Shown: positions 17,335-64,000 of the stretch, one piece after another
Layout: each line of letters opens with the position of its first letter
How positions within the stretch are numbered: position 1 is the stretch's first letter
Made by a program: the position numbers and the translations under genes
Source: Takakia lepidozioides
Lineage: Eukaryota > Plantae > Bryophyta
DNA: 64,000 nt
Reading direction: 5' to 3'
Assembly (NCBI GenBank): GCA_030704615.1
Contig: CM060733.1
Span: 29,326,001-29,390,000, forward strand
Notes under the pieces: generated by a model
What the model saw: the letters and a program-made list of their open reading frames with translations, nothing else
What the model was told of the DNA's origin: nothing
Databases searched by the model: none

Positions 17335-17757
17335 GGTGCAGGCCCGGCCGGTTTGGGGGCAGCAATTAGACTAAAGCAACTGTGCATAGAGAAGGGCACT
17401 GATCTGTCTGTGTGCGTGGTTGAGAAGGGTGTTGAAGTTGGTCAGCTCTCTGCCCCTCTCTTGTACGGTGCTTAGTTGTACAATTTGGATGACAGCCAGG
17501 CTAGCTTTGGATGACCAATTTGTACTTTTGCAGCACATAATGGATAGCAAGTTGGTTGGGGCGTAATGACAGTAGGTTGCTTCCTTGCCTCAGTGTCTAT
17601 TGCCATGATCAATGTTGTTCATCGTGCAACAGAGATTTATACAGAATCTCGGCGCCTGACTGTTCCTGTATATGTGGCAGGTGCACACATACTTTCGGGA
17701 AATGTGTTTGAACCACGGGCACTCAGTGAGCTCTTTCCAGATTGGAAGGATCAAGGC
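17335..17757 (+). pseudogene. ETFQO: Electron transfer flavoprotein-ubiquinone oxidoreductase fragment (two exons plus intron) captured in the hAT
   Basis: Exon 17335-17440 encodes GAGPAGLGAAIRLKQLCIEKGTDLSVCVVEKGVEV. GT-AG intron at 17441-17680. Exon 17681-17757 encodes GAHILSGNVFEPRALSELFPDWK. These are the N-terminal FAD-binding signatures of ETF-QO. Confidence 0.88.
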
Positions 17758-17779
17758 GTATGTCCTCAGTCCATACTTA

Positions 17780-19583: not shown

Positions 19584-22047
19584 AGACAAATTATTGTTCA
19601 ACATATTACATTATACTCCTTTGATTGGAGTTTGTTTATTTGTCATTTTTATTGAAAATTTCAGTGACATCCCGTGTACTTAGTTTGTTGTATGCTATAT
19701 TGACAAAGCATCATCCAAAAAACACAAATTTATGTAGTTTTTTTTAGTTGTGCTTTTGCTGCACCATAAAAGGTAACCATAGAATTACACATGTTTAATT
19801 TGTTTTGTATTTTGAATTAAGATCCTTATGTAGTTAGTTTGTTTTAGTTGTTCTTTGCTACACCGTACGACAACTTATAAAATCTCTGGTTTTCCGTTTT
19901 TAATGGAGACCATGCGTATATAACTAGTTATATATACCATAAAAGACAATCACAAAAAACATATAAGTTTATTTACTTCTGTTTTACTAATAAATTCCCT
20001 GGTTTTAGTTGAAAATTCTCAGTATGACCAATCAGATCAGTTCATCTAATTTTCCAGAAGAATAAAAAATTAAAAGAATTTAATATATTTTTAAAAAAGA
20101 ACCGGAACCTAACCGGAACCGGTGTTTTTTTTCCAGCAACTAACCGGTAACCGGAACCGCCCCCATGTTAAAAAGTCAGAACCTGAACCGGACCGGAACC
20201 GCCTTAATAAAAAATAACCGGATCCGGATCTGGAACCGTCTCTTCAAAAATTTGTGGAACCGGAACCGAAGGTTCCTTCACAAAGGCAAGAACCGCCCAA
20301 CACTAGTAGAGACTGTCCACAGCCAGCTCGCGGCAAGCACTCAACGCAAGTTCTGGCCGTAGAATCATCAGCCCTCTCTATCTCTTGGACCTCCTCCTTC
20401 CATGATGAACACAAACATCATCAACAATCCAGCAAATTGCTCGTTTATAAGTTGTTGCAATGCCAAAATGGTTGTAAGCACGCCCTTGTAGGCCATGAAG
20501 AGGACCAAGGCCACAAGAATATTATGCCTTCTTGCTTCCATAGTTTAGGGATACACGATTTGATGGGAGACAATCGTGTGTGAAGCGTAGAAGACAAAAA
20601 ATGAAAGAAGGGTGAGAGTGGTTGATATTGGTATAAGTTGAGCCCAATAGGTTTACACGAAGAAGGCCCAATTCCTTGAAAATTATATTTTAATCAGTTC
20701 ATTCAGCCCAATTGTGGGCCCCAAAGCTCTAGTCTTGGGCCCCGGCCCTTGTGTGAACGGGCCCTCAATTGAAGTCATATTGAAAGGAAACAAGGAAAAG
20801 TAGGCTTGCTGTGCATTCCATGACGCTGCAAAGGGGGCCAACCCACACAGGGAGGACCAGAACAGAGAGATCATCACAGCCCACACACGGCAGTAAAACA
20901 GAACAAGAAACAGGAGATGTAGTTGCCTGTAGCATGCAGAGTTCAAGGAATCCACCAATATTCAAGAAGGTGACCCTAAGGCCATGTTCCCAGACAGCAA
21001 GTGTAAGAGTTGGATGCAGAGGAATGGCTATGGCGGTTGTGCGAGCCGTGTACTAGATTCTGCGGGACCCACTGCTGGCTTTGTCTCACTCGTCAATGCT
21101 AACCACCCACCTCGCCATGATTTCTGCGGAGCATGCATTGTGTATTTCTGTGTGTGCTCTGTGGGTCTTTTTGTCGTGCATCAGATCGCATGGACCTAAG
21201 AGTCATCAGCAGAAGTTGGTCATCTGTTTCATTTTGGTTTATTCACTCACTCTTGCTCTCTGCTTGCAATGCAGCATGCGCCGGAGGAAGGAGAATCGTT
21301 GATGTATCTGATCCACAACCTTTTGCGTGATCGCTTTATGAGAGGGGCAGTTGGGTCTGATTGTTTGATCCATTAACAGGGCCGGTGACCGAGCCAATTG
21401 GGCAATTTTGAGAGAGAGAGTGAGAGAGAGAGCACTGTTGTGACATTGCAGGGCAACAAGATATTAAGGGGCGGAGTTAACTGTCAATCCTACTGCAGCA
21501 AATATGAAACTCTGACATAGCTCCATTTCGGCCGAACCTAGTTTGTGGGCTGGCCTAAAAGGTCCACATGCGACAAGAAAGCTGAATTGCGTGATCGAAG
21601 AACGTTAGAACTCAATGTTCTGCACCAGACTAAGAGAGAAAGGACCATTGTGGCAATCAAAGGGGTTGGGGAATCTGTGCCGAGCCCGATTGGTGTCACC
21701 ATGCATTGTATACCGTTGCAGACATGTACACTCTTCCTTCCTTCACAACGTATTACTGTCATATTGTTACATCCACAGAAGTCACAAACAAAGAGATAAA
21801 TAACGGAAGAAGAGCGGAAGAAAGGATGACAAAGAAGAAGTTAGAGATGGAGTACGACCAGAGGGCTAAAGAGCTACAAAAGAAAGACCAAAGAGCGTAC
21901 CACACCCCAAAAGTCGCCACGACCACTACACTAGTTGGAGGTGGGTCGTTACTTGTTCACTGATGCGTGAGAGAGACAAACCCTGAGATCGTCAATTACG
22001 AGAACAAAATGGATTTCTAAGTACATTATTTGGTACGATGTGCAGTG

Positions 22048-31713
<9,666 letters not shown>

Positions 31714-31898
31714 AACTAGGTTGCAATCACATCTCGTCAATGGTGCACCCTATTCCACTGGCAGGTGTTGAGTCTGCTGTTGCAGCCCCAGGTAACATCT
31801 AGCAACCCCACCACTTAACAGGCGCCAAATGCAAGACTGGGTAAAAAAGAATATTGCCACAAAATGCTAGGTGGATGTGTCTTGGCAAAGGTCTAGCC

Positions 31899-32521
31899 CA
31901 GTGTTGGACTGGTCTACAGGTTCTTACATTTGTGAAGGAACATTCAGCTCCAGTTCCACAATTATTTGAAGAGACGGTCCTGGATCCGGTTCCAGTTTTT
32001 TTCTATTGAGGCAATTCTGGTTCCAACTTTTAAAGCCGGGGGTGCTTCTGCTTACCTTGTTACCTGCCGGGAAAAAACACCGGTTCTGGTTAGGTTCCTG
32101 TTCTATTTTTAAGATATATTTTAATTATTGAAAATGTTTTAATAATTTCCATTAAATATATAATACCTTAAAAATTTGTTAAATTGTTACAGTATATATA
32201 TAGTGTGTGTGTGTGATTTGAGAAGCTGTCGCCTGCTCTCTCTGGAGCAGGGGGCGCCCTCGCAGCCTCATCACTCAGGCTGCCCACCACGACCTCATGT
32301 AGCCTGAGACACAGTGACCCACCCCACCGAGGGGTTTAACCTATACAGAACCCTGGGGAGCCCATGAACCCATGTGCAGCCCCGGCACACTCCTATCCTT
32401 CCCTGTCCTTGAACCCTGGTTCCGGATCTACAGTGGCGGCCTTGGCCTCAGTTCCTAAAACCGGAACCTGAACCGCCCCCCTTAACAAGTCCCATAAGCA
32501 GGTGGGGGGCGTCCGACATTG
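31899..32521. mobile_element. Possible non-autonomous hAT-like element
   Basis: Imperfect TIRs CAGTGTTGGAC and GTCCGACATTG, with AACCGG/CCGGTT subterminal motifs as in the hAT at 14955. No matching TSD. Confidence 0.4.
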
Positions 32522-33356
32522 GTATCAACACTCGGTATCAACACTCGAATAGGGAGCCCGGTGGTTGGGAGTTTGTGCCTTGCTTGTGCATAACCTAGGG
32601 TTCAAAGTGTAGTAGTCCCCAGTGGTCCCTCTGGATGAAGAGACACCATAATTTACGCTTCCTTCGGGAGGGGTCATCCTTCCTTCCTTTGGTGTCAACC
32701 AGACCAAGCTGGTATTCATTCTTGTTGCTAGGAATTGGATGCCCGGTTTTGGCACCTCCCATACCTAGGTCAGTATTCCAACTGCATTAGGGCCAAGAAA
32801 ATGAATTTGCACAAGGTATCAAGTATCAACCCTACGCATTTGTTTTTGCTTTGAGAGTTTAGGCTTCCTCTGGCCCTATAAAAGACATGAACTGTTTGAT
32901 GCAATGATTGAGTGGGGGGGTTGGTATCCTGTGTGTACGCTCAGGTGAGCACAACCCATGGGCATGGGAGTTTTATGGTTTTTAACCCCGGTCATAGGAG
33001 TTATATGTTTTCAAAACGGAATAAAACCATAAGCGGGTATAGTTTTTTCGTGCATTTGTACGGTACATCTGCGCCAATTCAGCGAGGGCGAAACCTTCAG
33101 TAGTGTAGCCAGAAACCCTAAACCTATAGTGGCGGCGGTGAATTTCGCATCGAGAAATGATGTGCTATGGGCACAAACTGAATTTCGCAGTGAGAAATGA
33201 TAGTTTAGGTGAATTTCGTATGGAGAAATCATATATGCTATGGGCACAAACTGAATTTCGCAGTGAGAAATGATATGTGACATGGGCACAAACCTAAGCA
33301 GCGGTGGGTTTCGCATTGTTCATCAGGTATAGGGGCTACTTGTTCTTTATGTGTAG

Positions 33357-33451
33357 GGTAAGCCTCCGGGATTACCGAAATGAGCCCCACCACGAGCGGT
33401 AGCCGAATGGCGGGGCGAGTGTAGGTAATCCCCCACACGAGGAGGCTTACC
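33357..33451. other. Nested multi-stem inverted repeat (potential structured RNA/DNA)
   Basis: GGTAAGCCTCC pairs with GGAGGCTTACC (11 bp), GGGATTACC with GGTAATCCC (9 bp), and GCCCCACCA with TGGCGGGGC (8/9). Confidence 0.6.
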
Positions 33452-34697
33452 GTGCGTGAAGAACGTGCAGGGAACGCTATAACTCACTGGCCAGCCTGGC
33501 GGGTAAATTATAGGATCGTGTAACTCATTGGCCACCCTGGCACGTAGAGTTAGAGGTTTAAGTCACTGGTTTCCCTTCCCTTCCATGTCAGTGCTCATTC
33601 TTTAGCTGTGACAGAGCTTATGGAGATCATCTCATGAATATGCTGGGGACTATGTTTTAGTCGCAGTTCAATCCCGCCTTGTAATAAATTTCCTGAAAGT
33701 TGGTCAAGTAGTATTCACTCCCTGGTTCCACTGCTTATCTCCGCTTCATCTGGAGTTATTTGCCAATACATCTGACGGCAGTCCTTGTTTCTAAGAAATC
33801 CTTAGCAAAACATGTTCTCAGGTTGGAAACCTGGAACTGGAAAGTACCCGCCACTTGTACTCCAGAAATTCCAGGGTAGTGATGTCTTAGTCTCCTCCTT
33901 GGTGAAAACATATGATGTCTGCTGCACAAATCAATCAACAAATGCTTTGGATACCTGCAGATGTATCTCCGTAGGAGATATTTTGCGTCCAAGAAGGCTG
34001 CAGGATCCGCATGGTGTCCATGCACATATTATAAATTGTGGTTTTGTAGGAAATGATATTTTGTCCTTTCCCCTCATGATCTCTATGAGTCAGTTTTGTC
34101 TGCCTTTTGACTCTCAGACAATCCCTTGTGAAATAGTGGGTTTTGGACTACTTGCGGCCCCTCTCTCTTTCTTGTTTCTTGCTTCCTCCTGTTCTTTGAC
34201 TTTGCCGCAGACATTACAAAGTACCATTTTCAATTCATCTCCCAGCTTGTAGCATGCACTATTTCAATTTCTGCTCTTGTAAATCTTCTTTCATCTGTCT
34301 GTTCATCAATTCAGCTGGATATAATTTATTTGAGTAACTAATGCACGTTGAAGATGAGACTTGATCAAGATATTAAGATTGCTTGCTAGTATCCTTGATA
34401 GTATCCTTTGTGATCAGATATGTTCTAATAATTAGCCACTAAGCCTCCTCTAACCTCAGAAGAGAGAATCACTTCCCAATTCCCAACTTCGGTGCTTCAG
34501 TACAAACAAGAGGACAATCCAAGACCTCATAATTATGTACTGTTCACGAATTTCTGCCAATATAATGATGGATGGAACGGCTCAAATTGTGTTCTCTACC
34601 AGCCATCGGGCAATATCTAACTGAGAAGCATCAGGCAATAACTTAGACAACCCACCTCCTGCTTGCCATCACCAGGAAAGGGGTATCAGGATCTTGC

Positions 34698-43924
<9,227 letters not shown>

Positions 43925-45074
43925 GGCGGTTGATCCGGCCCTTTAATTACGCAACTGCACACCACCTGTGCTCCTCAAGGGGAGATTCTGGCACCAAGGC
44001 AGCTAGACATTTCATCTGTCATTTCAATTGGAGGGCGGCACTGTCGCTAACCAGACAACAAGAATGCATGTCACCCATCTTCAAATGCAGTTCATACAAT
44101 TACTAACTTCACTTGTACAAATCGGTTCATCCATGATCTATGCATCTGGCGACGGCAACTCTCTCGCCAATGACAGCATGAAGTGAGAACAGCCCCAAAT
44201 TCTTGATCCACCTACCGTGGAAGCAACCTCATGAACCACTCTCCTTTTGGAAAGGCTCCTTCTCCAGCTCCCATAACAGCTGTACGCAGCCTAACAATCA
44301 GCTCCCCGCCCAACGTTTCCCCTCTCTCTCGCATATGAAAGACTGCGTTCCCGCTACCAAACTTGCAATACAGCGAGATTCCAGGCATCCTGCAGAGACG
44401 TCAGTAACCGTGCAAGTGCGATGCTGCCAGCATGAGATCATCAATCAGCTCACAACCCTTCTGCTGCACATACTCGAAAATCAAACCCAGGGCAGCGGAC
44501 AATCTATCCATGTGATTTCCACAAAAAATTCACCATCTCTTTCCAATCACAAGTTTGGAGGTAGAATCCGAGAGATTGCTTCGCATGATTCCCTTCAATC
44601 TCTATTCCCGCAGATCCATGATCGATTTGCGGGTTTTTTCTTCATGCATCGGCTGACCATGCAACCCAGAGTAGATGGGCCAGCCCGACAGCTCTGAATC
44701 TGAATCTGCCCAGCCCTGCTTTGGTGGCTTTCCGGGAGTCGGGATTTTTGGGGAACGAGACTGTCTTTTTTAACCCCTGATAAACCGCGGGACAGTTTTT
44801 TTCAGCATATCCGATCCGGCCATTTTCACCCTGCTACAGTAAATTAAATATCTCAGCGTGTGTTTTTCCCCTGTAACGTAGCCCGTCGATATGACAGGAA
44901 GCTGACACATAGAGTGGCCCCAGCTTATTCGCTTAATGACATCACCCGTGACCCGACCATTTGAAGGGTTGCCGGATTCCTGGCTGCCTACACTAACCAG
45001 CAGATATCCCTTCATGTACTTCCAAGTGATCCGGGGCAAATGATTATGTACCACAGCAATTCCTGGCATCACAC

Positions 45075-47666: not shown

Positions 47667-49158
47667 ATGGCTCCCACAAACTCGCAGTTCGGGTCCAGAG
47701 ATCGTGGCTATGGTAGAGGGAGGAGGCAGCCTCGGGCAAACCCAGTTGCGGGGGAACGGCTCCGATGGGATGAGGGGATCGACGGCGGGGGGAGCGCCAC
47801 GTGGCGGTGGGCGACCCAGGGCCCACCCATCCTCAGGGACGGGCTTCTTCTAGGCACACCAGGCCCAATCGCAAGGTAACTTCAATCACAGGGCCACGCA
47901 GGTCTGGCAGCCTAGAGGACCCCCCAGGCAGATCCCTACACCAACTATGGCCCACAGGCAGGGACCTGGAACGTACTGGAATCACAACCATCATCTTCTG
48001 AACTCCCCTCCCTTCAACGAGCTGGCACATATGCAGATTCAAGGTTCGACACTATGCCAAGCTGAAGTAGAGCAGCCACAGAGCCCCCATCACCTCTCAG
48101 ACCAGATGATGGATCTTCACATAACTCAAGAAGCCCTCCAGAGGGAGTGTCCTCTGATCTCCATGGACATGGAAGACCTTGAGACCAGAGTCACAGACAT
48201 GGAAAAATTCGGAATTCTGGTACATTTCCCAGGAAGGAAGGTGAAAAGAGCAGCCGTAAGAGATTGGGCAATCAGATATATGGGGGGCTCAGGGGAACTG
48301 AAACATCAATTTTGTCATGCTAAAGGTAGGGGTTTCTTTTCCATAGTTTTTGAAACTGAGGAAGCAGCATCACAGGCCCTCTTCTTTAATCCGCATGCAC
48401 ATGGGTTTAATATTAACATCTTTCCATGGTCCTCGAAAATGGGGCACAAAAATGGAATGCTCTGGGGACCTAGAATTGTGTCCTTACCCTTCATCCCAGA
48501 TCAATATCTTATGAACCTGCCTGACATAGCAAACCATTTTGGATCGTATCTGGGATGCATAGGGGTACTGTTTGACCCACTCATGAGCACCAACCTCATC
48601 AGACAGAATGCAGCATGGAAATCAGCAACTATTGCATCCAGAATAAATGACACAGGGCAGGCAAAAATGGTCTTATTAATTCCTGATGAAGACACCCTTC
48701 CGGATTTTGTGCGTCTACCAATAGACAGAGAGGGAAACTACTTCACCACGAGGCTGATTGAAGATACAGCTTACTCTACATGCTTCAATTGCGACATGCA
48801 AGGTCATATCAAGGCAAACTGCATGCAGGGGAAAAGAAAAAGGGTAGTAAAACTGAGCAGGGCTGAGGCCTCCCACCCCATTGAAGGAGGAGAATCACCA
48901 GTCAGTACCTCCCCAGGGATGGAGAGGCCTATCCAGAAACCAAGAACAGCTGAAGCTAACCCAGAACTGGTGGAGGATGTCCAGCTCAACCCACAGCACA
49001 GGCAAATGTTGTCTAGAGGGGAAGCAAAGGACCCTATGATCCTGGAATCACGCAACTACAAGCTGACACAAGGTAATCTGCACAGCAAGCAAAAATCGCA
49101 GGAAAATCCCTCCTCCTTTGGCAATTGTAACAGAGTTCTTAAACCCTATCTGGTCTAG
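47667..49158 (+). mobile_element. LINE (L1-type) ORF1, DUF4283-like region plus zinc knuckle; ORF2 not present
   Basis: GRGFFSIVFETEEAASQAL..P...INIFPWS, SLPFIP..Y and the CCHC knuckle CFNCDMQGHIKANC. The N-terminus is RG-rich and frameshifted. Confidence 0.72.
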
Positions 49159-49666: not shown

Positions 49667-50423
49667 GTGAATGGGGGCGAGACAGGATCATGGAGTGCAA
49701 ACACCCATGGCAGATGTGGGATGAGATGCGGAAAGAGAGAGTCATTGGATCTCTCAAGGAGCAATATGAGGAGTGGGGAGAGCCATTCACGGAGGATCAG
49801 TTGGAGGCCAAGGTGGCCAAGGCTCTTGAAGAGGTTGAGGATGTTTCTTTTGTGGAGGATGTTCTCAAGGTGGCTATGGCGGAGCAAGTGGAGGCTACGC
49901 CACAGTCAGGGTGGGCGGACAAGGCCCAAGAGGTTGTTATCTAGCAATCAAAGGATGCATCTCCTACCTCCAAGCCTGGTGTACCTAAGGTTGCAGTCAC
50001 TCAGGACAATTGGGAATTAGATGTTGGACCTACAGCCACCGGAGGAGAGAGACGGAGGATCCAAAGATTTCTAAGGGCTTCTAGAAATTGTTTTGCCTTT
50101 AGTTTGAAGGATTTAGGGAGTTTGAAGGGCCAGGAGATTCGTATTGATTTGGCAAGTGACACGCCAATTTTTCGAAGGCCCTACAGGTATAGTGACATGG
50201 AGAGGTCATTGATCCAGTTACGGACTATGGAGTTGTTCGAAGCTGGATTGGTGGAGTTGTCAGGCGGGAAGTATGCCTCGGCAACGGTGATGCCAGTTAA
50301 GAAGGATATCTATGGCAATTGGACAGAAAGAAGGATATGTGGGGACTATCGTCCTGTGAACCGTCAGACTAAGTCTGATAAATATGTCATGCCAACTCCA
50401 GAAGAAATCTTTGATGCCATTGG
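49667..50423 (+). mobile_element. Ty3/Gypsy pol fragment (post-DNMT linker plus RT N-terminus), same family as the DNMT-bearing element
   Basis: LKDLGSLKGQEIRIDLASDTPIFRRPYRYSDMERSLIQ...CGDYRPVNRQTKSDKYVMPTPEEIFDAIG is nearly the same as 62107-61790(-). CKHPWQMW matches CRHPWHTW, which follows the DNMT. Confidence 0.88.
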
Positions 50424-51890
50424 GCGCCTCTGTAAGGCCCAAGCCTGCAATTGCTGCTCTCCCCAACATCAATGGCTATACTTTCGAGTCCAACAAGACC
50501 CGCAATGGCCTATACCTCCTCCCGGTTGGGCCACCCAACTGAAACACTTCATCTTGATTGTCCACCAGGTCTACTCCAGGAGTCATCATGTTGTGCTCAA
50601 TGGCTGGTCTAGCTGGCAACTCCTACAACCTTGCAGCTGCCGCTTGCCATGGCGCAGCTGTGGCTGACTTCACCCCCGAATCCAAAGCATCCATAGACTG
50701 TATTATCTGATATCTCCGCAGAAGTGTCGATGCATCACCACTCTCATAGAGTCTAGCTGCTGGTCTGAACACAGCAGCTGGCCGAATCCCTGGCATTGCA
50801 ATGGCCATTGCAGAAAACAATGGAGCTTGGCAAACAGCCGTAGCCGCCCCCAACAATGTACTGGCTGCACATTGCTTTGCAGCACCACCCACTGGCATTT
50901 CCCGAGCCACACCTGCTCTCCCCAATGATACTCGTGGCTCTACCTCTGACACACTAGGGCAAGCGGGTGCCATCGATGGCGTAGTTGGCACTGTCTCAGC
51001 CAATGTAAATGACTGTGGAAGCCTTGTCTGACGACTTGCTTCCCCCCTTTGTGGATCAAAAACCACATCTGCTCCTCTTGGCTCAGGAGCTTGCGTTGCT
51101 GCTCAAGTGACAGCAGCAGCAGAGTCCAATACATGCAATGGCCCTACAAGTGCGGCTTCACACATGAAGCCCATACCAATCTGGTCTTCCCTAGGCATAG
51201 GAGGTTGTGTAGGTGGGGCTTGAACCTCAGGCCTTGGAGTTGGCGCAACATAAGTAGTGGCCATGGCAGCAAGACGTTGCTCTAGCTGGGCAAGTCTATC
51301 CACCATGCCTTGGTCATGACCTTGACCCTGACCTTGTGCTCCTTGGTTTTGGTTACGACCTCCACCACGACCTCTACCTCCTCTACCTCTCTGGACTACA
51401 TTGCCTCGTCCTCGGCCACCATTGTTCCCTTGGAACTGGCCTAGCCGTAGCTCAAGATGCAAGTCATAACAACGGGCCTCCTCATGCCCATACTTTCCAC
51501 AATGCCCACAGTGTAGTTGTGTAGGCTGTGCCAGTGCCGGCTCTTTGCCTCTCTCCGGGCAATCCTTCTTGACATGGGGTCCTCCACAATCCCAACAAGT
51601 CACACCCGACTGTTGTTGGCCTGAGAATGAAGGAAGAGACCTCTACATCTGAGATGTCCTTCCCTGGGCTTCGCCCAAGCCCCCTTGTTGCCTTGAGCAC
51701 GTTGGGGAGTTGGTTATTGTTGGCTAGGAACTCCACTTCGTTGTGTCTCCTTGCCAAACCCCACCATAACCACTTGCTCCTCCACCATATTGAGCTATAT
51801 CCGCTCTGCTAGCAAAAACACATTTGCTAGGGTGGGTTGGGCCACTTGATTCTTGTCCAAGATGTCGCGCACCTCACTTCGGTAAGCTCC
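50424..51890 (-). mobile_element. Ty3/Gypsy gag (two CCHC zinc knuckles) plus protease N-terminus, degenerate
   Basis: CWDCGGPHVKKDC and CGHCGKYGHEEARC knuckles with an RGG-rich tract. Protease-like RVLLDS..PLMLGRA at about 50460-50505. Confidence 0.8.
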
Positions 51891-52913
51891 TCTTCAAGCC
51901 ATAGTTACTCGCTTTGATGCGCGCGCCTAACTCCCAAACTAGCCGCCGGGCCAACTCAGAGCTTCGGCTGCTCACCGGGACATAACGGTCCCCCTTTGCT
52001 CCCCCACAAGACCCTCTCTTAATTTGGGCCTAGTGGAAATTCCCTTTGGTCGTTGGCAGTCCAGAACAGCTCCCCACACCTTGGTCGTTTTCCGGCTCGC
52101 ACGCTTACTCACTAGTTTTTGGTCACCAACGGACTTGCACCGTTCTCGGGGTTACTACTCCCCTATATATACTTCTATGACTGTCCGCGGGGGTTTCACA
52201 AACAACCATGCCATTTTATAGCGAACCACCACGAAAACCCTCGATTCCCGGTGATGAGTCGTGGTGAGTCTTGGCCCACCCACCACGACCCCATTGGACC
52301 GTGATGAGTCCCAAGACTCCCCACGACTCCCACCACAAGGTCTCCACCCCATGGTGAGTCCTATGCCACCTCCACTAAGACCCACTAAGCTACCACCACC
52401 CCTCGTGGAACCACCCCCACCGCAACCCAGTGTACGGGGCTCCACCTAGTGAGTGCCTCCGCCTCCTTGAGTGTCTTGGGCACTCAAGGGTGCTTCAGCC
52501 CCCCGCATCTATTGTTGCCACTGCCCCCACCACAGGGGCAGCCCCTCTTGTATCCCGACCCCCCTGCCCTCAAGGCAAAGGGCCGCGACACACACCCTTA
52601 CCAACAGGGAGTCGATGTCCTCATCGACTTGTCCATTTTGTAGAAACGAACATCCAAGTTGTGGCGTCCCACATCAAGGAGTTTGTTTCCGCACCATGGC
52701 GTCGCATGGCAAAGAACCAAACCCCCACTTGACTTTACTCTCCACTAGCTAGTTCGGCCAACTTCCTCCAAATCTTGGCGAAGGGTGGAGCCTCTTGAGC
52801 TCCTCCCAGTGCACTCTTCTTGGCCCACTTCAGGGCCAAGGAACGATCATCCCCGAGGATCGAATCGCCTTACTGCAACAACATTTGCTTGCGACCGCTC
52901 ATGATGCCGCTTT

Positions 52914-53391
52914 TGGCATCACCTTGAGCAAGGGTTCACCTTGAACCCTTTTTTACTAGGAAGATAACCTTGAACCAACCATGCGCCCCAATCACTACAA
53001 TTGGGTCCGCCTTGGAATGTTGGCCTGAGGTACGGGAACACGCCGAAGCCGCACACTACAAGGCAACCCCCTCGGTAGCGCAGTTATAGTACGCGCATGT
53101 GCCAGGTGCGCACTAGCACGTGAACTCCCAACGAAAGTACAAGTTTCCTTGCCCCTTGGATGGGAGTCACCCGATTTCGGCACTACGTAAACACACGATT
53201 AATCCAATTTACCTCTCCTACTTTTGTAAGCTAGCATACATTCTACACACTAGCCAACCATACCATGCATCACATTTCCAAACAAAATAGGATGCACAAC
53301 ATTTGGAAACCATTTCATTTATAACGAAATTTGTACAATACAAGTTTTTGCAATCAGATTCCTAAGCTAGCTAAGCCGGGCTAAGCATGCA
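52914..53391 (-). mobile_element. Probable 3' LTR of the chromovirus at 53426-56710
   Basis: Minus-strand PPT GGGGGAGGAAA (53392-53402) is followed by TG. The putative end ...GATGCCA lies at 52914. Boundaries are approximate. Confidence 0.55.
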
Positions 53392-53425
53392 TTTCCTCCC
53401 CCATGATCCAAGGTTGATGTCCCCA

Positions 53426-56400
53426 TCAACGCTTCTTCCACTTTTGAGGTCGCCCTTCGAAAGCTGCAACCGCCTCGGATGCGTTTCCCATTTCTGAGGC
53501 ACGCACCCAAGATGCCTCAACATGATGATAGCCCTTCCATTTCATGAGATACTCCGTTTCTCGATTCTTGAACCTCCTCGACTTAAGCACTGCCTCCACC
53601 TCGTACTCAGGTTCGTTTTCATGATCCAATAGCACAGGTGGCGGACGCAACACTTGATGCCGATTCGGACGCGCTTCATCTTTGAAGTAAGGCTTCAAAA
53701 GGGAGACGTGGAATACCAGATGCACCTTGCTGTTTGCCGGCAGCTCCAATTCATACACATCCTCATTCATAACCTTCCGGATGCGAAAGGGTCATGCATA
53801 CGGAGGTACGAACTTCGGACTCACTTCCGGAGATAGTTGGAAATTCTTGATGTTCAACCAGACCTCCGTGCCTGCCTCAAACTTAACTTCCCTCCACTTC
53901 CGATTCGCATGTCATTCATACCGTTTCCTAGTTTTGGCAATGTTGTACTTTGCAAGCTTCAACAAACGTTCGCGTTCTTCCAACACCGTTGCTGCTGCCG
54001 GTTCCTCAACGTCTTGGGCGGCCCAACTTGTCGGCACCAGAGGTGCTTTTCCATAGACCAATACGAAAAGAAAAATTCCCGTTGCGGAGTGTTTTGTGTT
54101 ATTATAACAGAACTCTGTCGCGTCCAAGTGCTCCACCCAGTCCGATTGGTCTGTCGACACGTAATTCCATAAGATCTGCTTCACCACGGAATTCACCCTT
54201 TCCGTTTGGCCGTCTGTTGTAGGTCGGAAGGCAGTGCTCATCTTGAGCCTCGTCCCCATTTTCTTCCAGAGTGCCCTCCAAAATTTACTTGTAAACTTTG
54301 GATCGCGGTTCGAGACAATATCCTTCGGGAGTCCATGATGCTTGAAGACGTGGGCGAAGTAAAGTCGCCCCGTCTCCTGTGCCGTTGCCGTCTCCTTGGT
54401 GGGAATGAAATGGCCCATTTTACTGGACCTATCCACCACCACCATGATTGCATCGAATCCTTTTGACAGCGGCATAGCACTCATGAAATTTTCCCAAGAC
54501 CCCTCTGGAATCGGCAAGGGTTGTAACAGCCCCGCTTGCTTTTTATACTCGCTTCGGTTTTGTTGGCATGTGGTGCATGTCTTGACATACTCCTCGGCCT
54601 CCTCCCTCAGCTTGGGCCAGAAATACTCTTTCTTCAGGAGTGCCGCGGTGTGCTTGGCTCCACCGTGGCCCGCAAGCGGGCCATCATGGCATTCTCTCAA
54701 GAGGCTATCTCTGACCTTTCCCTTCGACACATAGAGATGCTTTTGCGTGTACCGGAGCAGTCCATTTTGCAAGTGGAACTGCGATTTAGCCCCCATCCTC
54801 GAGTCCCGCATCACAGGCTTCGCCATCTCATCCTTCCGGTAAGCCTTCCGGATCTTCCTTTGGAGCGTCGTCTCGCCCCTGTACACCAACATGAGCTGTT
54901 GCTTTCTACTTAAAGCATCGGCCACCACCTTGTCCCGTCCCGGTTTGTACTGGATATCCACGTCGAACACCGCTAAAATGTCTTGCCACCTAAGTTGTTT
55001 TGGGGACAACTTAGGCTGCATGGCAAAATACTTCACCGTGACATTGTCCATGAACACCTTCACCGGGTTGGAACCAACATAGTGGCGCCAAAGCTCAAGG
55101 CAATGCACCACCGCCTTCATTTCTTTTTTGTGCATAGGCCACCGTCACTCCACTTCATTCAGTTTCTTACTTTTGTAAGCCACTGGACATCCAGCTTGCA
55201 TGAGTACACCCCCAATCGCGAAGTCCGACGCATCTGTATGAATCTCAAATGGACGGTCGAACTCCGGGATTTTCAAGACTGGAGCTTCCGCCATCCGCTG
55301 CTTCAACTCGGCAAAAGCTTGGCCACAAAAGGTGTTTCATACCCATACTTTGGATTTACACAGAAGGTGTAACAGCGACCCCGCGATCTTGGCGACATTT
55401 CTCACATACTTTCGGTAATAGTAGGCGAGTCCTAGGAAGGATCGCACTCCCGGGACCGAAGTCGGAGACTCCCAGTCCAAGATCGCCCTCACATTTCTGT
55501 AATCCATTTTGATCCCATCCTGTGTAATCACATGCCCTAGGAACTCCACTTTTGTGACCCCGAATTCGCACTTTGAAGCTTTGGCATACGGCTTCCCTTC
55601 CCGCAATTTCTAGAACACCCTTTTGAGGTGCTCCAGATGCTCTTCCTTTGTTTTTGAGTACACCAAGATGTCGTCGATGTACACGATCACAAAGTCATCC
55701 AACCATTCTTGGAAAAGGCTGTTCATTAGCGTGCTAAAGGTCGCGGGTGCGTTGGTGAGCCCAAAAGGCATCACCAATAACTCATATGAACCATATCTTG
55801 TCATGCACGCGGTCTTCTCCTCATCTCTTTCTGCCACTCGGATTTGATGACCACTAGCCGGAGCGCAAATCAATCCGGCTGAAATACTTCGCTCCTGCTA
55901 ACCGATCGAAGAGGTCGTCGATCCTGGGCAAATGGTACCGGTTCTTGATAGTCATCTTATTCAGAGCCCTGTAATCGACACACATCCGCAGCGTCCCATC
56001 CTTCTTGTCTGCGAATAGCACCGGGGCTCCGTAAGGTGACTTACTCGGCCGGATGTACCCCTTTGACATTATATCCTTGAGCTGAGTCTTCAGCTCGATC
56101 ATCTCTCTGTGGCTCAACCGGTAGGGCGCCTTGGCAGGCGGCTCCGATCTCGGTATCATCTCAATGATCTTGTGGTCAACTCCTCTTTGCGGTGGCAAGC
56201 CGCTTGGTAAATCCTCTGGCATCACATCTTGGTATTTCTCCAAGATCCCCTTGATCCAATCTGGGCTCGGCTCCCTATCGCCTTCTCCCTCCACTTGTCT
56301 TACGTAAAGCAAGAACTGGGGCTCATGTGACTCCTCCACGGCCCACTCTTTTGCTGACATCAGGTTTATTCGCCCTCCCACTGGGTTGGGCGTTTCCGAC

Positions 56401-56710
56401 ACTCGTAAAACTTCGCCACCATTCCCACACGGTAGCGTGACTACTCTCTTGCGGCCATCTATGACCGCTCCGGATTTGCTCAAAAATGTCATCGCCAAAA
56501 TGAGATCCACTCCATCGATCTCGCAAATGGTGAAGTTCTCACGTCCCTCCCAACTCCCCAGCTGAAGAGGAACATCAAACGCCAACCTCGTCGCCAATTG
56601 TGGTTCTCCTTTGGCAGAACGCACCTCAATAGAGGACCCCACATCATTTGTCAGGAGCCCCACCTTCCGTGTCGTTGCCGGTGTCATGAAGGAGTGCGAC
56701 GCTGCTAGGA
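53426..56710 (-). mobile_element. Ty3/Gypsy chromovirus pol (PR-RT-RNaseH-IN-chromodomain), degenerate
   Basis: PR region (ASHSFM...DLILAMTFL), RT ([33 protein letters not shown]), RNase H (TDASDFAIGGVL), IN (CHDGPLAGH..CTTCQ, DGQTER), and chromodomain EYEVEAVL..EYLMKWKGY..ASW. Several stops and frameshifts. Confidence 0.93.
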
Positions 56711-57559
56711 CCATTGCAGAGATCTGGGAAGATGGCTGAGATCTGGGCTGCATCGGTAATACCAACGGAGCATGAAGCACTTATCGTAAAGCCGAATGTG
56801 TATGGCCTGAGCGGAAAACACGGGTGTTTGAGCAGTTATCACAGCCCACCACAGCATCACACAGCCTATCACAGCCCACCATAGTGTCACACAGGATGGT
56901 GTCTGATGGGGGTATGTGCCATTCGATTCCGCAACCTCCGTCGTTACCTAGCACGACAATGGTCTCGTCAACCTGTCCAGGAACATCCTTCCTTTCTTCT
57001 TCCAAATAAACTGTGCCCGGTTTGAGCTTGAATTTGGAACAAAGGTAAGTTTCAGTCACTCTGCAAAGTCCTCCCTCGTTTGGGATCCAGGCTCTCCCAA
57101 GTTGCGGAGGACAGCAAACTATAGCGTAGGAATTCGGAGCCATCGAAGACCGCACGAAGTTGGCAAGTGCGAGGTTCAGTATAGCGACAGACCAAGGCTC
57201 ACAGGCACCATGCGGAGTCCATCGACGATTGGAAGTCGCACATTGAAGTGGAAAGTATTGTTTCAAGCTACATGCATGAAGGTGGGAGGTGTGATTCCAT
57301 AGCCAGTAAGTTAGACAATGATGGCCGATTCGGCGACGAAATAACATCTCCTGACAGTTTCTCCTGAGGGTGGATCCAGCAGTATTCTCGGTGCAAACAG
57401 GAACGTTCGCACTGACAAGTGCCAGTACTGTTAGTTAAAACGGTCAGACAACCAAGTTGTGCTCATCAAGATTGGCCGCAATTGTGTTGTTTCGGAACAA
57501 TGCAACCCATTCAGGTTCCAGATTTCCCGTCCCGAGTGATTCTTTCGATTGCTGGTGGA

Positions 57560-59290
57560 CAAAAATACGGCGCCGCATTTCCGTATTGCATCTTGGTCAT
57601 GCACCAGAGCGACGGAAATGCGGCACCGAGTTTCCGTCCGGGGGAAACCTTTATACTCTCCAGAACGGAAATGCGGTAACGCATTTCCATCCAGCAAGCA
57701 CGGTATGTGAAGGTGGTACGGAAATGCGGTAACGCATTTCCATCCAACAAGCACGGTATGTGAAGGTGGAACGGAAATGCGGTACAACATTTCCGTTCTG
57801 ATTGAGAATTATGAACAAAGGGAACAGAAATGCGGCACCGCATTTCCGTCCGAGTCGCACTTTCCGACATTCCAGAACGGAAATGCGGCACCGCATATCC
57901 GCCCGGGTGAGACCTTAACACTCTCCAGAACGGAAATGCGGTAACGTATTTCCATCCAGAAAGCACGGTATGTGAAGGTGGAATGGAAATGCGGTACCGC
58001 ATTTCCGTTCTGATTGAGAATTATGAACAACGGGAACAGAAATGCGGCACCGCATTTCCGTCCGAGTCGCACTTTCCGACATTCCAGAACGGAAATGCGG
58101 CGCCGCATTTCCATTTTGTATCTGATGCATGGAGCCGAGTGCAATTCCGACCGCTTGAGACAGCGCAATTCCGACCGGTTGAGACATTCATACTATCCGG
58201 AACGGAAATGCGGTGCCGCATTTCCGTTCTGATTGAAAATCGTGAACCATCGGAACTGAAATGCGGCAGCGCATTTCCATCCGAGTCGCACCTCCCAACA
58301 TTCCAGAACGCAAATGCGGCACCGCATTTCCGTTCTGATGAAAAATCGTGAAACATCGGGACTGAAATGCGGTACCGCATTTCCGTCGGAGTCGCACCTT
58401 CCGACATTCCAAAACGGAAATGCGGCGCCGCATTACCGTTTTGTATGTGAGGCATGGAGCTGTGGAATGAAAATGCGGCACCGCATTTCCGCCAGGGTCA
58501 GACCTTAATACTTTACAGAACGGAAATGCGGTACCGCATTTCCGTTCTGACTGAAAATCGTGAACAACGGGAACAGAAATTCGGCTCCGCATTTCCGTCC
58601 GAGTCGCACCTTCCGACATTCTCGAACGGGAATGCGGCTCCGCATTTCCGTCCGAGTCGCACCTTCCGACATTCTCGAACGGGAATGCGGCTCCGCATTT
58701 CCGTCCGAGTCGCACCTTCCGACATTCTCGAACGGGAATGCGGCGCCGCATTTCCGTTTTGTATACGAGGCCTGGAGCTGTGGGACGGAAATGTGGTGCC
58801 GCATTTCCATCCATGTGAGACCTTCAAACTTTCCAGACAGGAAATGCGGCACCGCATTTCTGTTCAGGTGAGACCTCTATACTTTCCCGAACGGAAATGT
58901 GGAACGGCATTTCCGTTCATCAACTGCGGTATGTGAAGGGGGAACGGAAATGCGGTACCGTATTTCAATTCAGATTGAAAATCATGAACCACGGGAACTG
59001 AAATGTTGTGCCGCATTTCCGTCCGAATCGCACCTTTCGACATTCCTGAACGGAAATGCGGCGCCGCATTTCCCTTTTGTATCTCATACATGGAGCTGTG
59101 GGACGGAAATGCCGCACCGTATTTCCGTTCAACAACTAAGGTATGTGAACGTGGAACTGAAATGCGGTGCCGCATTTTCTTCCAACAAGTACGGATGTGT
59201 AGCTTCGTGATGGTACTTAACGGAAATGCGGCGCCGCATTCGCATTTTCACTCCAACTCATCAGACGCTGGGACGGAAATGCCTTGAAAT
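57560..59290. repeat. Array of about 30 units of 53 bp, each a 26-bp palindrome plus a 27-bp spacer from a few recurring classes
   Basis: Core ACGGAAATGCGGYRCCGCATTTCCGT at 57718, 57771, 57824, 57877, 57930, 57983, 58036 and 58089, and again from 58202 in 53-bp steps to about 59156. Confidence 0.95.
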
Positions 59291-59677: not shown

Positions 59678-61200
59678 ATGCCGAAGGGGATGAAGCAGAT
59701 GCGTCTACAGGAGGAGATTGCCATCTCCGAGCAGCAGGCCACTCAGGCAACCCAGCCACCAGTGAGAGCTCCATGCGATCGGGCTGCGCGCAGCTGATCG
59801 AGCACTGAGTACTTGATATGCCAACAAGGGATAATGGGTGAGTTGATGGGGAACTAGTGTAGTACTTGACTGTGCTTGCCAGATTCGATGTACCGAACCC
59901 CCCATTTTGCTTCTGTAATTCTTAGACTGAATGCTAGGAGACTTGAATGCAGAACATGTTTGCATGCCTAACAGGAAAGGTGGACGTGCTGGAGGGATCG
60001 CAGGAATCCGAAGAGCCGCAGGAAGAGTCCGAGGAGCTAGCTGCAGCACGTACACCCACTCGATCCCCGAGCGCGGGTATTCCTGCCGGGCCTAGCCCTG
60101 TGCGTTTCAAAGACGCGGCTTCGAAGGGCAAGTTCAAAGCCCCAGAGATCGACTCGCGTTCTTCGGTCATGGAGAATCGCCAGCAGGGGTCGGGCCCTTC
60201 TCCAGCAAAGTCGAAGAAGAAGCAGCCCATCCCTCTACTGGTTTCTGAACCGGCTCAGGCCGCTTCACCCCCACCAACGCGAATGAAGCAGCCTGGTAAA
60301 AGACAGATTCAATTGCAGCAGATACCTTCACCTGCAAGGATGAGGAAGCAGAAGGCAATCAGGGCAAACGGCCAACAATCTCCCGCAAAACCGCTTCCAC
60401 GAGCTGAAGCTCAGTTCCTGGAGGATTTCTCGCCTGCAGATGTTGGGGCCGACTCTGCTGCAGCGAAGGCAATGGGATCGACCGTTTCTGTCGATTTGGT
60501 ACCGGAGGAGGGTGCTGCCGCTCAACGTTCGCAGCAAGACCTCACCACCGATGAGCAAGCAGGTCCGGAGGAGGCCTCTGCAATGGCAGAATTGCCCGCA
60601 GACAGGCCCAGAGTGCAGCTCCAGTTGAGGATGCTCCAGCTGCTCAGCCACTACCGGCACCTACAGACATGTCTCTGGAGGATTTCAAAAGTGCAGCTGA
60701 TAAAATGTTGGAGGAGACACACAGTAGCATTGGCAGAGTTCTGGGCAGCAGGGTATTCCAGCGGACTCTTCGAATCCCACTCTGTCGCATGGTCTCCCTT
60801 CCCATTGTCAGGCAGGCCCTTCCCGGAGATGTGGATAAGCTCAGTTCGCATTTCGAGAAGGGTACCGTCTGGATCGGCAGCGTTTTACGTTTCCATTGAG
60901 AATGAGGACGGCGAACTCGTGGACCCACTGCGATGAATTGTCAACGTGGGATACCCAGTGGCACACTCGCAACAACGAATTCGAGGCGACGCTGAAGGGT
61001 GATCCAGACTTCGGCCATATGTCGGTAAAAATGTTCTTTGTGTGGGACGGGAATCACCGACTTCTCGCCTGGTGGGAGTACATCAAGCAGAACCATGCCA
61101 AGCACATTGGCTGGCATTACATGGTGGAGTGTGTCATCCTCAAGTGAAGGCGGCAGACTCCTCCTTGCTCAAGAATGCCATGGGGGGCCCAACTTCGTAA
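59678..61200 (+). CDS. Putative ParB/Sulfiredoxin-like domain protein with a low-complexity N-terminus; frameshifted and truncated at the assembly gap
   Basis: Joining frames across 60669-61147 gives RIPLCRMVSLPIVRQALPGDVDKLSSHFEKG..AFYVSIE...KMFFVWDGNHRLLAW (DGNHR at 61046-61060). Exon structure and start are tentative. Confidence 0.55.
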
Positions 61201-61234: not shown

Positions 61235-61734
61235 NNNNNNNNNNNNNNNNNNNNNNNNNNNNNNNNNNNNNNNNNNNNNNNNNNNNNNNNNNNNNNNNNN
61301 NNNNNNNNNNNNNNNNNNNNNNNNNNNNNNNNNNNNNNNNNNNNNNNNNNNNNNNNNNNNNNNNNNNNNNNNNNNNNNNNNNNNNNNNNNNNNNNNNNNN
61401 NNNNNNNNNNNNNNNNNNNNNNNNNNNNNNNNNNNNNNNNNNNNNNNNNNNNNNNNNNNNNNNNNNNNNNNNNNNNNNNNNNNNNNNNNNNNNNNNNNNN
61501 NNNNNNNNNNNNNNNNNNNNNNNNNNNNNNNNNNNNNNNNNNNNNNNNNNNNNNNNNNNNNNNNNNNNNNNNNNNNNNNNNNNNNNNNNNNNNNNNNNNN
61601 NNNNNNNNNNNNNNNNNNNNNNNNNNNNNNNNNNNNNNNNNNNNNNNNNNNNNNNNNNNNNNNNNNNNNNNNNNNNNNNNNNNNNNNNNNNNNNNNNNNN
61701 NNNNNNNNNNNNNNNNNNNNNNNNNNNNNNNNNN
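61235..61734. other. Assembly gap (500 N)
   Basis: Run of N bases. Confidence 1.
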
Positions 61735-64000
61735 TAACTGGTGATATCCGGATCGTAAATCCAACGTGCTTAAAGACCTTGGAATGCCCAATGGCATCAA
61801 AGATCTCCTCTGGTGTTGGCATGGCATACCTATCGGACTTGGTCTGACGATTTACAGGCCGGTAATCACCGCACATACGTCTCTCCGTCCAATTGCCATA
61901 GACATCCTTCTTAGCTGGCATCACTGTGGCTGAAGCATACTCTCCACCAGAGAGCTCCACCAAACCTGCCTCCCAGAGATCTTGAGTCCTCATCTGAATC
62001 AAAGACCTCTCCATGTCACTGTATCTATAGGGTCTCCGAAAGATTGGCGTGTCAGTGGCCAACTCAATACGGATCTCTTGACCCTTCAGTGCTCCCAAGT
62101 CCTTCAAACTGAAGGCAAAGCAATTCCTGTAAGCCCTCAGGAACCGCCGTATACGTCGTCTCTCTCCTCCGGTGACAATGGGTCCAATGTCAGGCTCCCA
62201 ATTGTCCTCCGTAACTGCAACCTTAAGTCAGTGGGCTTAGAGGTAGAGGACGCGTCCTGTGGTTGCTATGCTGCAACCTCTTGAGCAGTACTCCTTCCTG
62301 CTCAGTCAATGACAAGGCCTCATCCTGCCCCATCATCTCATCATTGAGAACCTCCTCAACCCGAGAAGAATCCCAATCTCATCCATCACAGCTGCCTTGG
62401 CTGCCAACTCCCTCTGAACCTCGAGCACCTCCCACGTGTGCCATGGATGTCTACACCCCGTGGTCCTCACCGGCTCGCCCCCACTCACTGCCTGTACCGT
62501 CTCGGTAGGCAGAGAGACCATGAAGGGGAGTGCACTCCGCACTCTACGTTGCTCAGCCATAGCCAAGCTGATAATCCAGGTCAAGCAATTGAGATCCATT
62601 GCTTGCCCCAACACCTGACGCCGTGATGCCTCAGAAAGAGAAGGCACCGTTGTGGTCCCAGTGGAAAACCCCATAGCCCGCTCTCGCTCGTCGGCATTAG
62701 GCTCCACTAACTGCTGCAACTGAGCATCCCACAGGAGGCCAGGTCCACCATCCCGAAAAGCATGGGATCCTGGGAAGCTGAGCAGTGTAGGTAATGCTGC
62801 TCGTGGTTGACCCACCCTGTTGACCACTGCCAAAGGCGAACGGTCATCGTGTCTCACACGTTGAGACTGCCTCCCTGTGTCCAAAATGCTGTCCACTATG
62901 AGGTGTGTTGGCCGCTCCACCCCATCAAATGCACGCTTGAGCAGTGCGGGTGGCATCAAGTTAGTCCACCATAGCCGTGGACGATGAGCCCGTGATCCCA
63001 CTGCAGTTGCATCCAGCAGCACTGCTGACCCAAGCCACGACCGGACTTGATGCACACTGGCCATCACCCTGGCCCGAGAATCGCCCATCAGTGGCACATT
63101 CTCCAAGATGTATGCTGGCGATACAGCTTGATGAAGCTGCAAGTGGCGCAAAATCCGCACCATCTCCCAAAACAGACCCGTCCTCGAGTCTCGCAATCCA
63201 TTGCCATGCCCGGTGATGAATGCCCTTGGCAGGGCCAACCTGCCACTACCAGATCAATGGAGCCAACTGCTCCAAATCCGGCGCCCCCAGCAACGAAATG
63301 TCTGCTGGCAAGGCTTGGTGGTATCCACGAACTGCAGACACTGGCAACAAAGCAGGGTACTGCTGTACCAACTGAGCAACATGGCGCAGTGAGACGCGTC
63401 GTGCAGTCTCATCCCTCTCCACATACAGGTAACGCCTTACCCGCACACCTGCCTGTAGCATAGCAGCCAATCCGGTGCTGATCCCGCCAAACAAGTCCAG
63501 AAGGCAAATGCCTTCATCCGGATACTGCCACACAATAGGTGTGGTATCCAATGGTGACAACTGAGGTGGTCCTGGTGCAATACCCGCACTCTCCTCCTCT
63601 CCTGACGGTACAAAAGCCTCTACCCAGGCTTGTTGCACCCGTCGATCAGCAACCTGCTGCAAATCCTTGCTCGTACCCCACAATGGAGTGTGAGCAGCCA
63701 TGGCAGGCAACTCCGCCATACCATGCATGTCATCCTACTCTGATGGAGGTGGCACATCCTCTGCATGGGCATTGCCTTCCAGCAACTCTCTATTCCATCT
63801 AACTGAAGCTGTAAAGGCGACTAATGTTGGCATCTTGCCCCGCTGGGCAGCCGCTATATCCCCAATGAATGTCACAGGGAGCTGTGCACGGCGACCATTG
63901 CCTGACTGCCATCCAGGCCTGTAGGATGCTAACTCCTCCCAAAAGTCCAGGGTGAAGCCCATGGGGTATAACACTACCCCACCAACGAGGACATCGTAAG
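61735..64000 (-). mobile_element. Ty3/Gypsy retrotransposon pol with domain order protease - C5 DNA methyltransferase - reverse transcriptase
   Basis: Protease C-terminal YDVLVGG at the window end, DNMT at about 63510-62560, then RT PIFRRPYRYS...RMCGDYRPVN...STLDLRSGYHQL running into the gap. Confidence 0.9.
62560..63510 (-). CDS. C5 cytosine DNA methyltransferase domain within a retrotransposon pol (two 1-bp frameshifts around motif IV)
   Basis: Motif I LLDLFGGI (~63503-63480), II YLYVE, III DI, IV DLVVAGWPCQG (GWPCQG at 63240-63223), VI YILENV (63103-63095), VIII AHRPRLWWTN, IX ERERAMGF and X RRQVLGQAM. Confidence 0.9.

Follow-up and report, generated by a model that had tools for sequence, protein, structure and literature searches.

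Organization of the element copy in the window

The window analyzed here is a 64,000-nucleotide stretch of the Takakia lepidozioides genome (assembly GCA_030704615.1, contig CM060733.1, positions 29,326,001 to 29,390,000). The minus strand of 61735–64000 carries the end of a protease, followed by a complete DNMT3-type DNA methyltransferase (DNMT) domain with two frameshifts and by the start of a Gypsy-type reverse transcriptase (RT). A preliminary description had reported a protease C-terminus, C5-methyltransferase motifs and an RT in this order on one strand, with motif IV hidden between two 1-bp slips; every motif was found on the minus strand, and the one-base slips were located near 63265 and 63213.

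The C-terminal part of the aspartic protease (63738–63998, minus, like all parts of this copy) aligns to the Marchantia polymorpha protein P0003 from residue 714, past the LLDSGA of P0003 at 636. The protease–DNMT spacer (63516–63737) has a stop codon at 63737–63735 in this copy. The DNMT occupies three frames, namely motifs I–III (63264–63515; LDLFGG at 63500–63483), motif IV with the catalytic cysteine (63214–63258; GWPCQG at 63240–63223), which is flanked by the two slips, and motifs VI, VIII and IX–X (62561–63208; ENV at 63103, RPRLWW at 62983 and LGQAM at 62611). The DNMT–RT linker contains TAG-CAA-CCA (62260–62268), a stop codon in a CARYYA context and a predicted readthrough site. The N-terminal part of the RT (61735–62227), which is 74% identical to residues 695–830 of Marchantia P0011 and was also placed by the RT tree, is truncated by a 500-N assembly gap (61235–61734), past which no recognizable continuation of the element was found. 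Gag and the protease start fall past the window end, and RNase H, integrase and both termini lie outside the window.

The three DNMT frames were chained by tblastn with relatives from Marchantia and Calypogeia (E values, 5e-180 and 0.0). The Pfam methylase model PF00145, proposed as a check, gave a weak match to the longest single-frame piece at 62561–63208 (E value, 1.6e-3; 18.4 bits), which did not reach the 22-bit cut-off, whereas intact relatives scored above it, with 35.6 and 51.1 bits. When X was placed at both breaks, the window DNMT was a stop-free sequence of 317 aa, and the family profile covered 317 of 317 positions (E value, 2e-152), a match that is not independent because the profile was derived from matches of the window piece. 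Pfam returned no match for the protease, motif I, motif IV and RT pieces of the window, and the intact relative L034 gave a weak Asp_protease_2 match below the cut-off (E value, 2e-4). A single-sequence AF2 model of the 212-aa piece of the window had a pLDDT of 34.6 and was set aside.

The stop in the spacer (63737) and additional slips in the DNMT–RT linker and in the RT indicate that the window copy is dead. Among the contigs of public runs, almost all others carry a different letter at 63737, and at both slip sites the length of many further copies differs by a single letter. The CpG observed/expected ratio was 0.52 in the element, 0.34–0.56 in host exons and 0.85 in another Gypsy element, and is non-diagnostic.

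Two further remnants of the same family were found in the window. One comprises a linker and an RT start (49710–50425, plus), with TAG-CAA-TCA at 49942–49950 in frame with the ensuing RT, and shares 78% nucleotide identity with the main copy; an adjoining inverted part (50434–51881, minus) contains the end of Gag, zinc knuckles and the N-terminal half of the protease, and the DNMT was deleted at the inversion. Although it resembles a DNMT-less family member at first sight, this remnant is an inversion with a deletion and says nothing for or against the existence of such members. The third remnant (1274–2197, minus) consists of a DNMT motif I–II piece (2027–2197) and a C-terminal integrase piece (1274–1843).

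Distribution and architecture of the family

Searches with the longest window piece retrieved 48 long homologues, with the best matches in Calypogeia fissa (68%) and M. polymorpha (63–69%); Sphagnum fallax and S. troendelagicum were the other named sources. A profile built from 12 sequences yielded 290 shorter proteins and 80 metagenome loci, as well as 524 clusters (50% identity) at E ≤ 1e-30. Ten locus pairs were at least 99% alike over more than 1.5 kb, so the locus counts slightly overstate independence. Viral contigs yielded one weak locus, and the ESM Atlas yielded generic C5-methylase clusters only. No named vascular-plant or Klebsormidium sequence was present among the matches listed, which does not speak for their absence. 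Since every relative was fetched via its DNMT, members without the domain could not show up.

The domain order in relatives is Gag, zinc knuckle, protease, DNMT, [TAG], RT, RNase H, integrase and a plant homeodomain (PHD) finger. Of 81 loci, 42 have the protease–DNMT–RT order, which is also seen in proteins from Marchantia, Calypogeia and Sphagnum, and 17 more have a compatible partial order (11 with protease–DNMT at a contig end or gap and six with DNMT–RT). The remaining loci comprised one with protease–DNMT–PHD, 16 with the DNMT before integrase (12 of these directly after RNase H) and five that were uninformative. Among 308 DNMT-bearing proteins, 51 have the domain before the RT or directly after the protease and 87 after the RT or RNase H, while its position is indeterminate in 170. 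The second architecture, in which RNase H precedes and integrase follows the DNMT, forms a single clade with a support of 96 in the DNMT tree and likewise in the RT tree; Scenedesmus sp. and Hariotina are the members known by name, the latter assigned by its DNMT–integrase–PHD order. The window DNMT falls in a 10-row clade with Calypogeia, Sphagnum and Marchantia (support, 99), and the two trees agree broadly. Membership in Ty3/Gypsy is indicated by the order of protease, RT, RNase H and a DDE (rve) integrase in relatives; of these parts, the window itself holds the protease end and the RT start only.

A second sub-family, a subset of L047–L081 (e.g., L056:5625–14939), has a DNMT that is approximately 40% identical and also has split ends, without the stop codon that follows the DNMT in the clade of the window. 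In addition, protein P0087 is labelled as belonging to a bacterial metagenome-assembled genome and yet groups tightly with retrotransposon locus L034; it probably represents a eukaryotic contig in a bacterial bin.

In the public run X2, the summed contig depth was 2.6e5–1.5e6 per bin on the element (likeness 80) versus 69.6 in a neighboring unique bin (likeness 85); as summed depth is no copy number, and X1 and X2 are possibly the assembly's own sample, this supports the description "very abundant" only.

The earlier proposal that a methyltransferase-bearing family, and not a one-off insertion, resides in a land plant was thus borne out by the named liverworts and peat mosses and the 42 of 81 loci. 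The adjoining N gap and the frameshifts of the window copy might hint at an assembly chimera or at a host DNMT gene that was captured once. This alternative has a negligible probability and is refuted: the domain order recurs in 42 loci and in liverworts and mosses known by name, the window has two further remnants, a 2173-nt contig from another study joins DNMT motif X to the RT, and a 366-nt contig spans both DNMT frameshifts. The region is almost certainly a dead member of a high-copy family of Ty3/Gypsy type in which a DNMT3-type methyltransferase is a genuine, family-wide component.

The methyltransferase belongs to the DNMT3 class

The domain is identified as a C5-methyltransferase by motifs I, IV (PC), VI (ENV), VIII (RxR) and IX–X, which are present in unpermuted order. 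In PDB searches with the sequences of relatives, DNMT3A ranked first, followed by DNMT3B, DRM and then HhaI, HaeIII and DNMT2, with profile E values of 6e-23 versus 5e-13 and 7e-10 along this ranking. An AF2 model of the Marchantia P0003 domain (pLDDT, 90.8) had DNMT3A/B as its best fold match (E value, 4e-18; TM, 0.72). These sequence and fold searches of relatives place the enzyme in the DNMT3 class, with DRM, DNMT2 and the bacterial enzymes as more distant matches. It shares fold and motif order with the catalytic domain of DNMT3A/3B and with the plant host DNMT3/DRM enzymes, but it is only about 20–22% identical to them, is intronless, has no PWWP or ADD domain and, unlike DRM, is unpermuted.

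The catalytic cysteine was conserved in 268 of 271 aligned rows, the glutamate of ENV in 294 of 302, and the two arginines of RxR in 282 of 303 and 290 of 301. When the window copy was compared with 21 Sphagnum-like loci, pN/pS was 0.198/0.753 for the DNMT, 0.174/0.712 for the RT and 0.409/0.743 for the spacer, with synonymous sites saturated in 15 of the 21 DNMT pairs; by this measure the DNMT is as constrained as the RT, whereas the spacer is not. Among these 21 close, decayed copies, dN/dS was 0.54 for the DNMT versus 0.41 for the RT. Judging from these substitution patterns, the DNMT is under purifying selection.

A conserved in-frame stop codon follows the methyltransferase

Locus L034 is intact save for one in-frame TAG-CAG-TTA, which separates an ORF of 1369 aa (Gag–protease–DNMT) from one of 1047 aa (RT–RNase H–integrase–PHD). 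The homologous site was found in 23 of 27 Sphagnum-like loci, where it reads TAG in 17, TAA in five and TAC in one, and the next codon is CAA in 22 of the 23. The stop is therefore present in 22 of the 23 located Sphagnum-like loci and, in addition, in L033 and L034. Both window copies have it, as TAG-CAA-CCA (62268, minus) and as TAG-CAA-TCA (49942, plus, in frame with its own RT); the window contains three such TAG-CAR-YYA 9-mers, two of which are these family sites. Consistent with this, Marchantia P0002 and P0003 and Calypogeia P0001 end 82–84 aa past the DNMT. The stop is missing in the second, more distant sub-family (15 loci) and in P0026, P0031 and P0205, where the frame runs on.

UAG-CARYYA is known as the type I readthrough signal of plant viruses (PMC5382211), and the Sphagnum-like context CAA-CCC is one letter away from CARYYA. 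Because the conserved in-frame stop follows the DNMT, the enzyme is likely part of the abundant Gag–protease product, with the RT made by readthrough. The majority of ribosomes would end at the TAG, such that nearly every Gag would bear protease and DNMT, and a minority would pass UAG-CAR-YY and add RT, RNase H, integrase and PHD. The preliminary description had proposed that the enzyme would be released from the polyprotein and packaged together with the RT; in the clade of the window, the conserved stop parts the two, so that the DNMT cannot be viewed simply as a piece of Pol made in equal amount with the RT.

The role of the DNMT could be the same if the stop were bypassed in another way, either by splicing, with the TAG serving as acceptor site, or through reinitiation. 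In Sphagnum-like copies, the TAG is preceded by a T-rich stretch and followed two codons downstream by an ATG, which would suit such a bypass, but this ATG is lacking in both window copies and in L034, and the DNMT, the TAG and the RT are held in one frame in two families despite linkers of 372 and 489 nt. We regard splicing or reinitiation as quite improbable, and readthrough as the preferred explanation. An in-frame stop also governs downstream enzymes in the readthrough retroelements MuLV, Tca2 and SIRE1 (PMC2194720) and in viruses with tobamovirus-type UAG-CARYYA signals (PMC5382211), as far as these sources describe them. The present element differs in that its stop comes after Gag–protease–DNMT and that no stable RNA structure beyond that of shuffled sequences was found 3′ of the stop (3/3).

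Split ends and proposed self-priming and integration in relatives

The termini, the self-priming signal, the integrase and the PHD finger are known from relatives and not from the window copy; the terminal repeats of relatives had no match in the window. Full copies have the layout A–internal–G tract–B–x–A–B, with A pairs 84–94% and B pairs 80–94% alike. An ordinary pair of complete direct LTRs was absent in the relatives, whose layouts are A..B-x-A-B or A..B, so that the term "LTR-to-LTR", used in the preliminary description for intact copies, is inapplicable. All 20 listed left ends (18 distinct) open with TGTCAT, and the right ends close with (G/A)ACA. TG..CA ends and a 4-bp target duplication, as in Ty3/Gypsy elements, were observed in five of six relatives with both ends; the single-B copy L016 has a target duplication, and L049 has none.

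The junction of B and A forms a GACA-nn-TGTC palindrome in 10 of 17 loci of the protease–DNMT–RT architecture, while six stop after a single B and one is too short; the ends of the element are the halves of this internal palindrome. In the RNase H–DNMT–integrase type, a split-end junction was detected in two of 15 loci (one locus). Within this clade, L070:2717–3425 and L073:4750–5458 carry a perfect B|A palindrome and a second B, and split ends are thus common to both architectures.

In two families, the sequence that directly follows A has its complement within A, over 10–17 nt in five of seven copies and over less than 10 nt in the other two. The complement lies at about position 164–170 of A in four copies, approximately 30 nt past a TATA box at 132–138. 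This is reminiscent of the Tf1-type self-priming that PMC6317226 mentions for Tcn1 elements. Transcription would start approximately 30 nt after the TATA box in repeat A, the 5′ end of the RNA would pair just past A and prime synthesis itself, and the plus strand would begin at the G-rich tract preceding B. With self-priming after A and a plus-strand start before B, the unit duplicated by the RT would be B-x-A.

The split ends, the target duplications, the self-priming signal and the termini that are palindrome halves together suggest that the integrase cuts circular cDNA internally. It would cleave the palindrome GACA-nn-TGTC and not the cDNA ends, a two-unit circle giving A..B-x-A-B and a one-unit circle or a double cut giving A..B; the two-base spacer of the palindrome corresponds to the overhang left at a processed end. 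The A..B copies could instead have arisen by B–B recombination or assembly collapse. The mirror product A-B-x-A..B, which is expected from a symmetric two-unit circle, was found at none of the 18 left ends. Integration from circles via internal-site cleavage is a prediction of this terminal anatomy, and programs that search for LTR pairs would likely overlook or mis-annotate elements with ends of this kind.

Split direct repeats are characteristic of tyrosine-recombinase retrotransposons of the PAT/Ngaro/TOC1 type. These elements have A..B-A-B ends as in the relatives described here, but the relatives have an rve integrase, TG..CA ends and 4-bp target duplications. Troyka was also considered and was ruled out by its CG ends and 3-bp duplications.

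A PHD finger accompanies the integrase

The integrase-bearing protein of relatives contains a PHD finger, with a Pfam PHD match above the cut-off in L034, L055 and P0229. The best 60 matches to solved PHD structures include CHD4, PHF21A, KAT6, DPF3, KDM5, UHRF1, BAZ2 and AIRE, which we take to be readers of unmethylated H3 tails. The methyl-lysine cage position, two residues before the histidine, is glycine in 62 of 66 sequences. A finger of this type, without the cage, may direct insertion to H3K4-unmethylated chromatin.

Comparison with known methyltransferase-bearing retroelements

The closest known element, as judged from its published description, is KnitGypsy-Dnmt3 of the alga Klebsormidium nitens, which has a DNMT3 in Pol, a Ka/Ks below 0.2 and DIRS-like repeats (de Mendoza et al., 2018; PMC5890265). 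The DIRS layout, according to the review file of that paper, has the ORFs between A1 and A2, and A2 in turn between two B repeats. An unrearranged DNMT3-type domain in a Gypsy polyprotein, purifying selection and DIRS-like repeats were all found here as well, the repeats in relatives only. In KnitGypsy-Dnmt3, the DNMT shares one ORF with the RT and RNase H (PMC5890265), whereas in the clade of the window the conserved stop parts them, and the single-ORF state occurs in other sub-families. The two also differ in host, an alga in one case and a land plant in the other. The available text of PMC5890265 contains no PHD finger, target duplications, internal palindrome or self-priming; the words "Marchantia" and "fern" are missing from the body of the paper, and its supplements were negative for "PHD".

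Other retroelements carry methyltransferases too, among them SymbioDIRS-Dnmt3, which produced de novo CG methylation in yeast (PMC5890265), and EpiLTR/DAM-LTR. SymbioDIRS-Dnmt3 is a DIRS element with a tyrosine recombinase, and the DNMTs of EpiLTR, according to the portion of the preprint available, are sister to DNMT4 and accompanied by DAM and a chromodomain (10.64898/2026.05.21.726589); the relatives of the present element differ from both by their DDE integrase and PHD finger. The accessible parts of two recent reports cite such elements for "streptophytes" and name no land-plant members (PMC12344493, 2025; preprint 10.64898/2026.05.21.726589, 2026), and those of PMC6317226 describe Phygy and Selgy without a methyltransferase or homeodomain. 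The available text of a Marchantia methylome paper names only five DNMTs, all of the host (PMC5784723). In the literature covered, with most subscription papers and Repbase falling outside the search, no publication was found that treats members from bryophytes or chlorophytes, and none that reports the stop or the palindrome.

New here are the stop after the DNMT, the split palindromic ends, the PHD finger on the integrase and the chlorophyte-including RNase H–DNMT–integrase clade. The range of retrotransposon-borne DNMT3 enzymes grows from a single alga to include mosses, chlorophytes and liverworts, among them the model M. polymorpha; taken by itself, the land-plant range is a modest addition. 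ORF1 products of the family have been annotated as hypothetical host genes.

Possible roles of the methyltransferase

On balance, we consider it somewhat probable that the DNMT3 is made together with Gag and protease, is packaged and methylates the new DNA of the element before integration. The packaged enzyme would act on extrachromosomal element DNA, and the position of the leaky stop predicts that it is abundant. A role in the particle fits, because the domain remains within the polyprotein at both of its positions.

It is unlikely, though the most credible of the other roles, that the DNMT works in trans on chromosomal DNA, such as older copies, rival elements or host genes, for example to limit copy number. 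Synthesis at the level of Gag would supply enough enzyme for the nucleus, and a host benefit by slower transposition was listed as an option by de Mendoza et al. (PMC5890265). Against action in trans, a monophyletic clade has the domain between RNase H and integrase, at the level of Pol (87 proteins; support, 96).

A non-DNA or non-catalytic function, either RNA methylation or the binding and shielding of cDNA, is less likely still. It would agree with the failure of the KnitGypsy-Dnmt3 domain to methylate DNA in yeast, a result that its authors termed inconclusive, and RNA methylation has been proposed for a LINE-borne DNMT (PMC5890265). However, human DNMT3B was likewise inactive in the same yeast assay (PMC5890265), the closest folds are DNMT3A/B with DNMT2 much lower, and the Cys, ENV and RxR residues are almost invariant.

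Beyond the packaging of the enzyme, a doubtful but possible reading is that these elements form an old clade spanning the green lineage, with hundreds of families in chlorophytes and bryophytes, that combines capsid-level DNMT3 made via a leaky stop, methylated circular cDNA, integration through one palindrome and a PHD finger aiming at H3K4-unmethylated chromatin. Such a cycle would place the logic of DNMT3 plus ADD inside a transposon as a self-contained mimic of silencing. Concrete tests in Marchantia follow from where the stop lies, from the layout of the ends and from the PHD finger, and the question raised in 2018 of how a transposon profits from a methyltransferase of its own becomes testable in a model plant because M. 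polymorpha carries the family.

Other features of the window

An ordinary abundant Gypsy element without a DNMT (protease, RT, RNase H and integrase) lies at about 51815–57400 (minus) and adjoins the 5′ side of the second remnant; its chromodomain-like end was judged by eye, and a further integrase/chromodomain-like piece is located at 1–800 (plus). The RT of this other Gypsy element was on a long branch in a tree built without REXdb Phygy, Selgy, OTA and chromovirus references. Further repeats include a stop-bearing hAT transposase remnant (17548–19583, plus; PF05699), LINE-like fragments recognized by eye that had no Pfam match (25646–26671, minus, and 47854–49158, plus) and a satellite of 53-bp units with higher-order periods of 106, 212 and 318 bp (57660–59200). 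Past the satellite lies a 329-aa low-complexity frame (59947–60936, plus), which had no match in Pfam or the Atlas.

Two ABCC/MRP-type transporter genes face each other at 22021–35489 (plus) and about 36800–43942 (minus), and their exons are 67–80% alike. A single-exon RING-finger gene (6984–7961, plus) had its best matches in mosses, which, with weak support, makes an early-branching moss the probable host: in its gene tree the window gene branches off later than the Sphagnum rows and earlier than Ceratodon and Physcomitrium (supports, 86/89 and 85/78, none starred).
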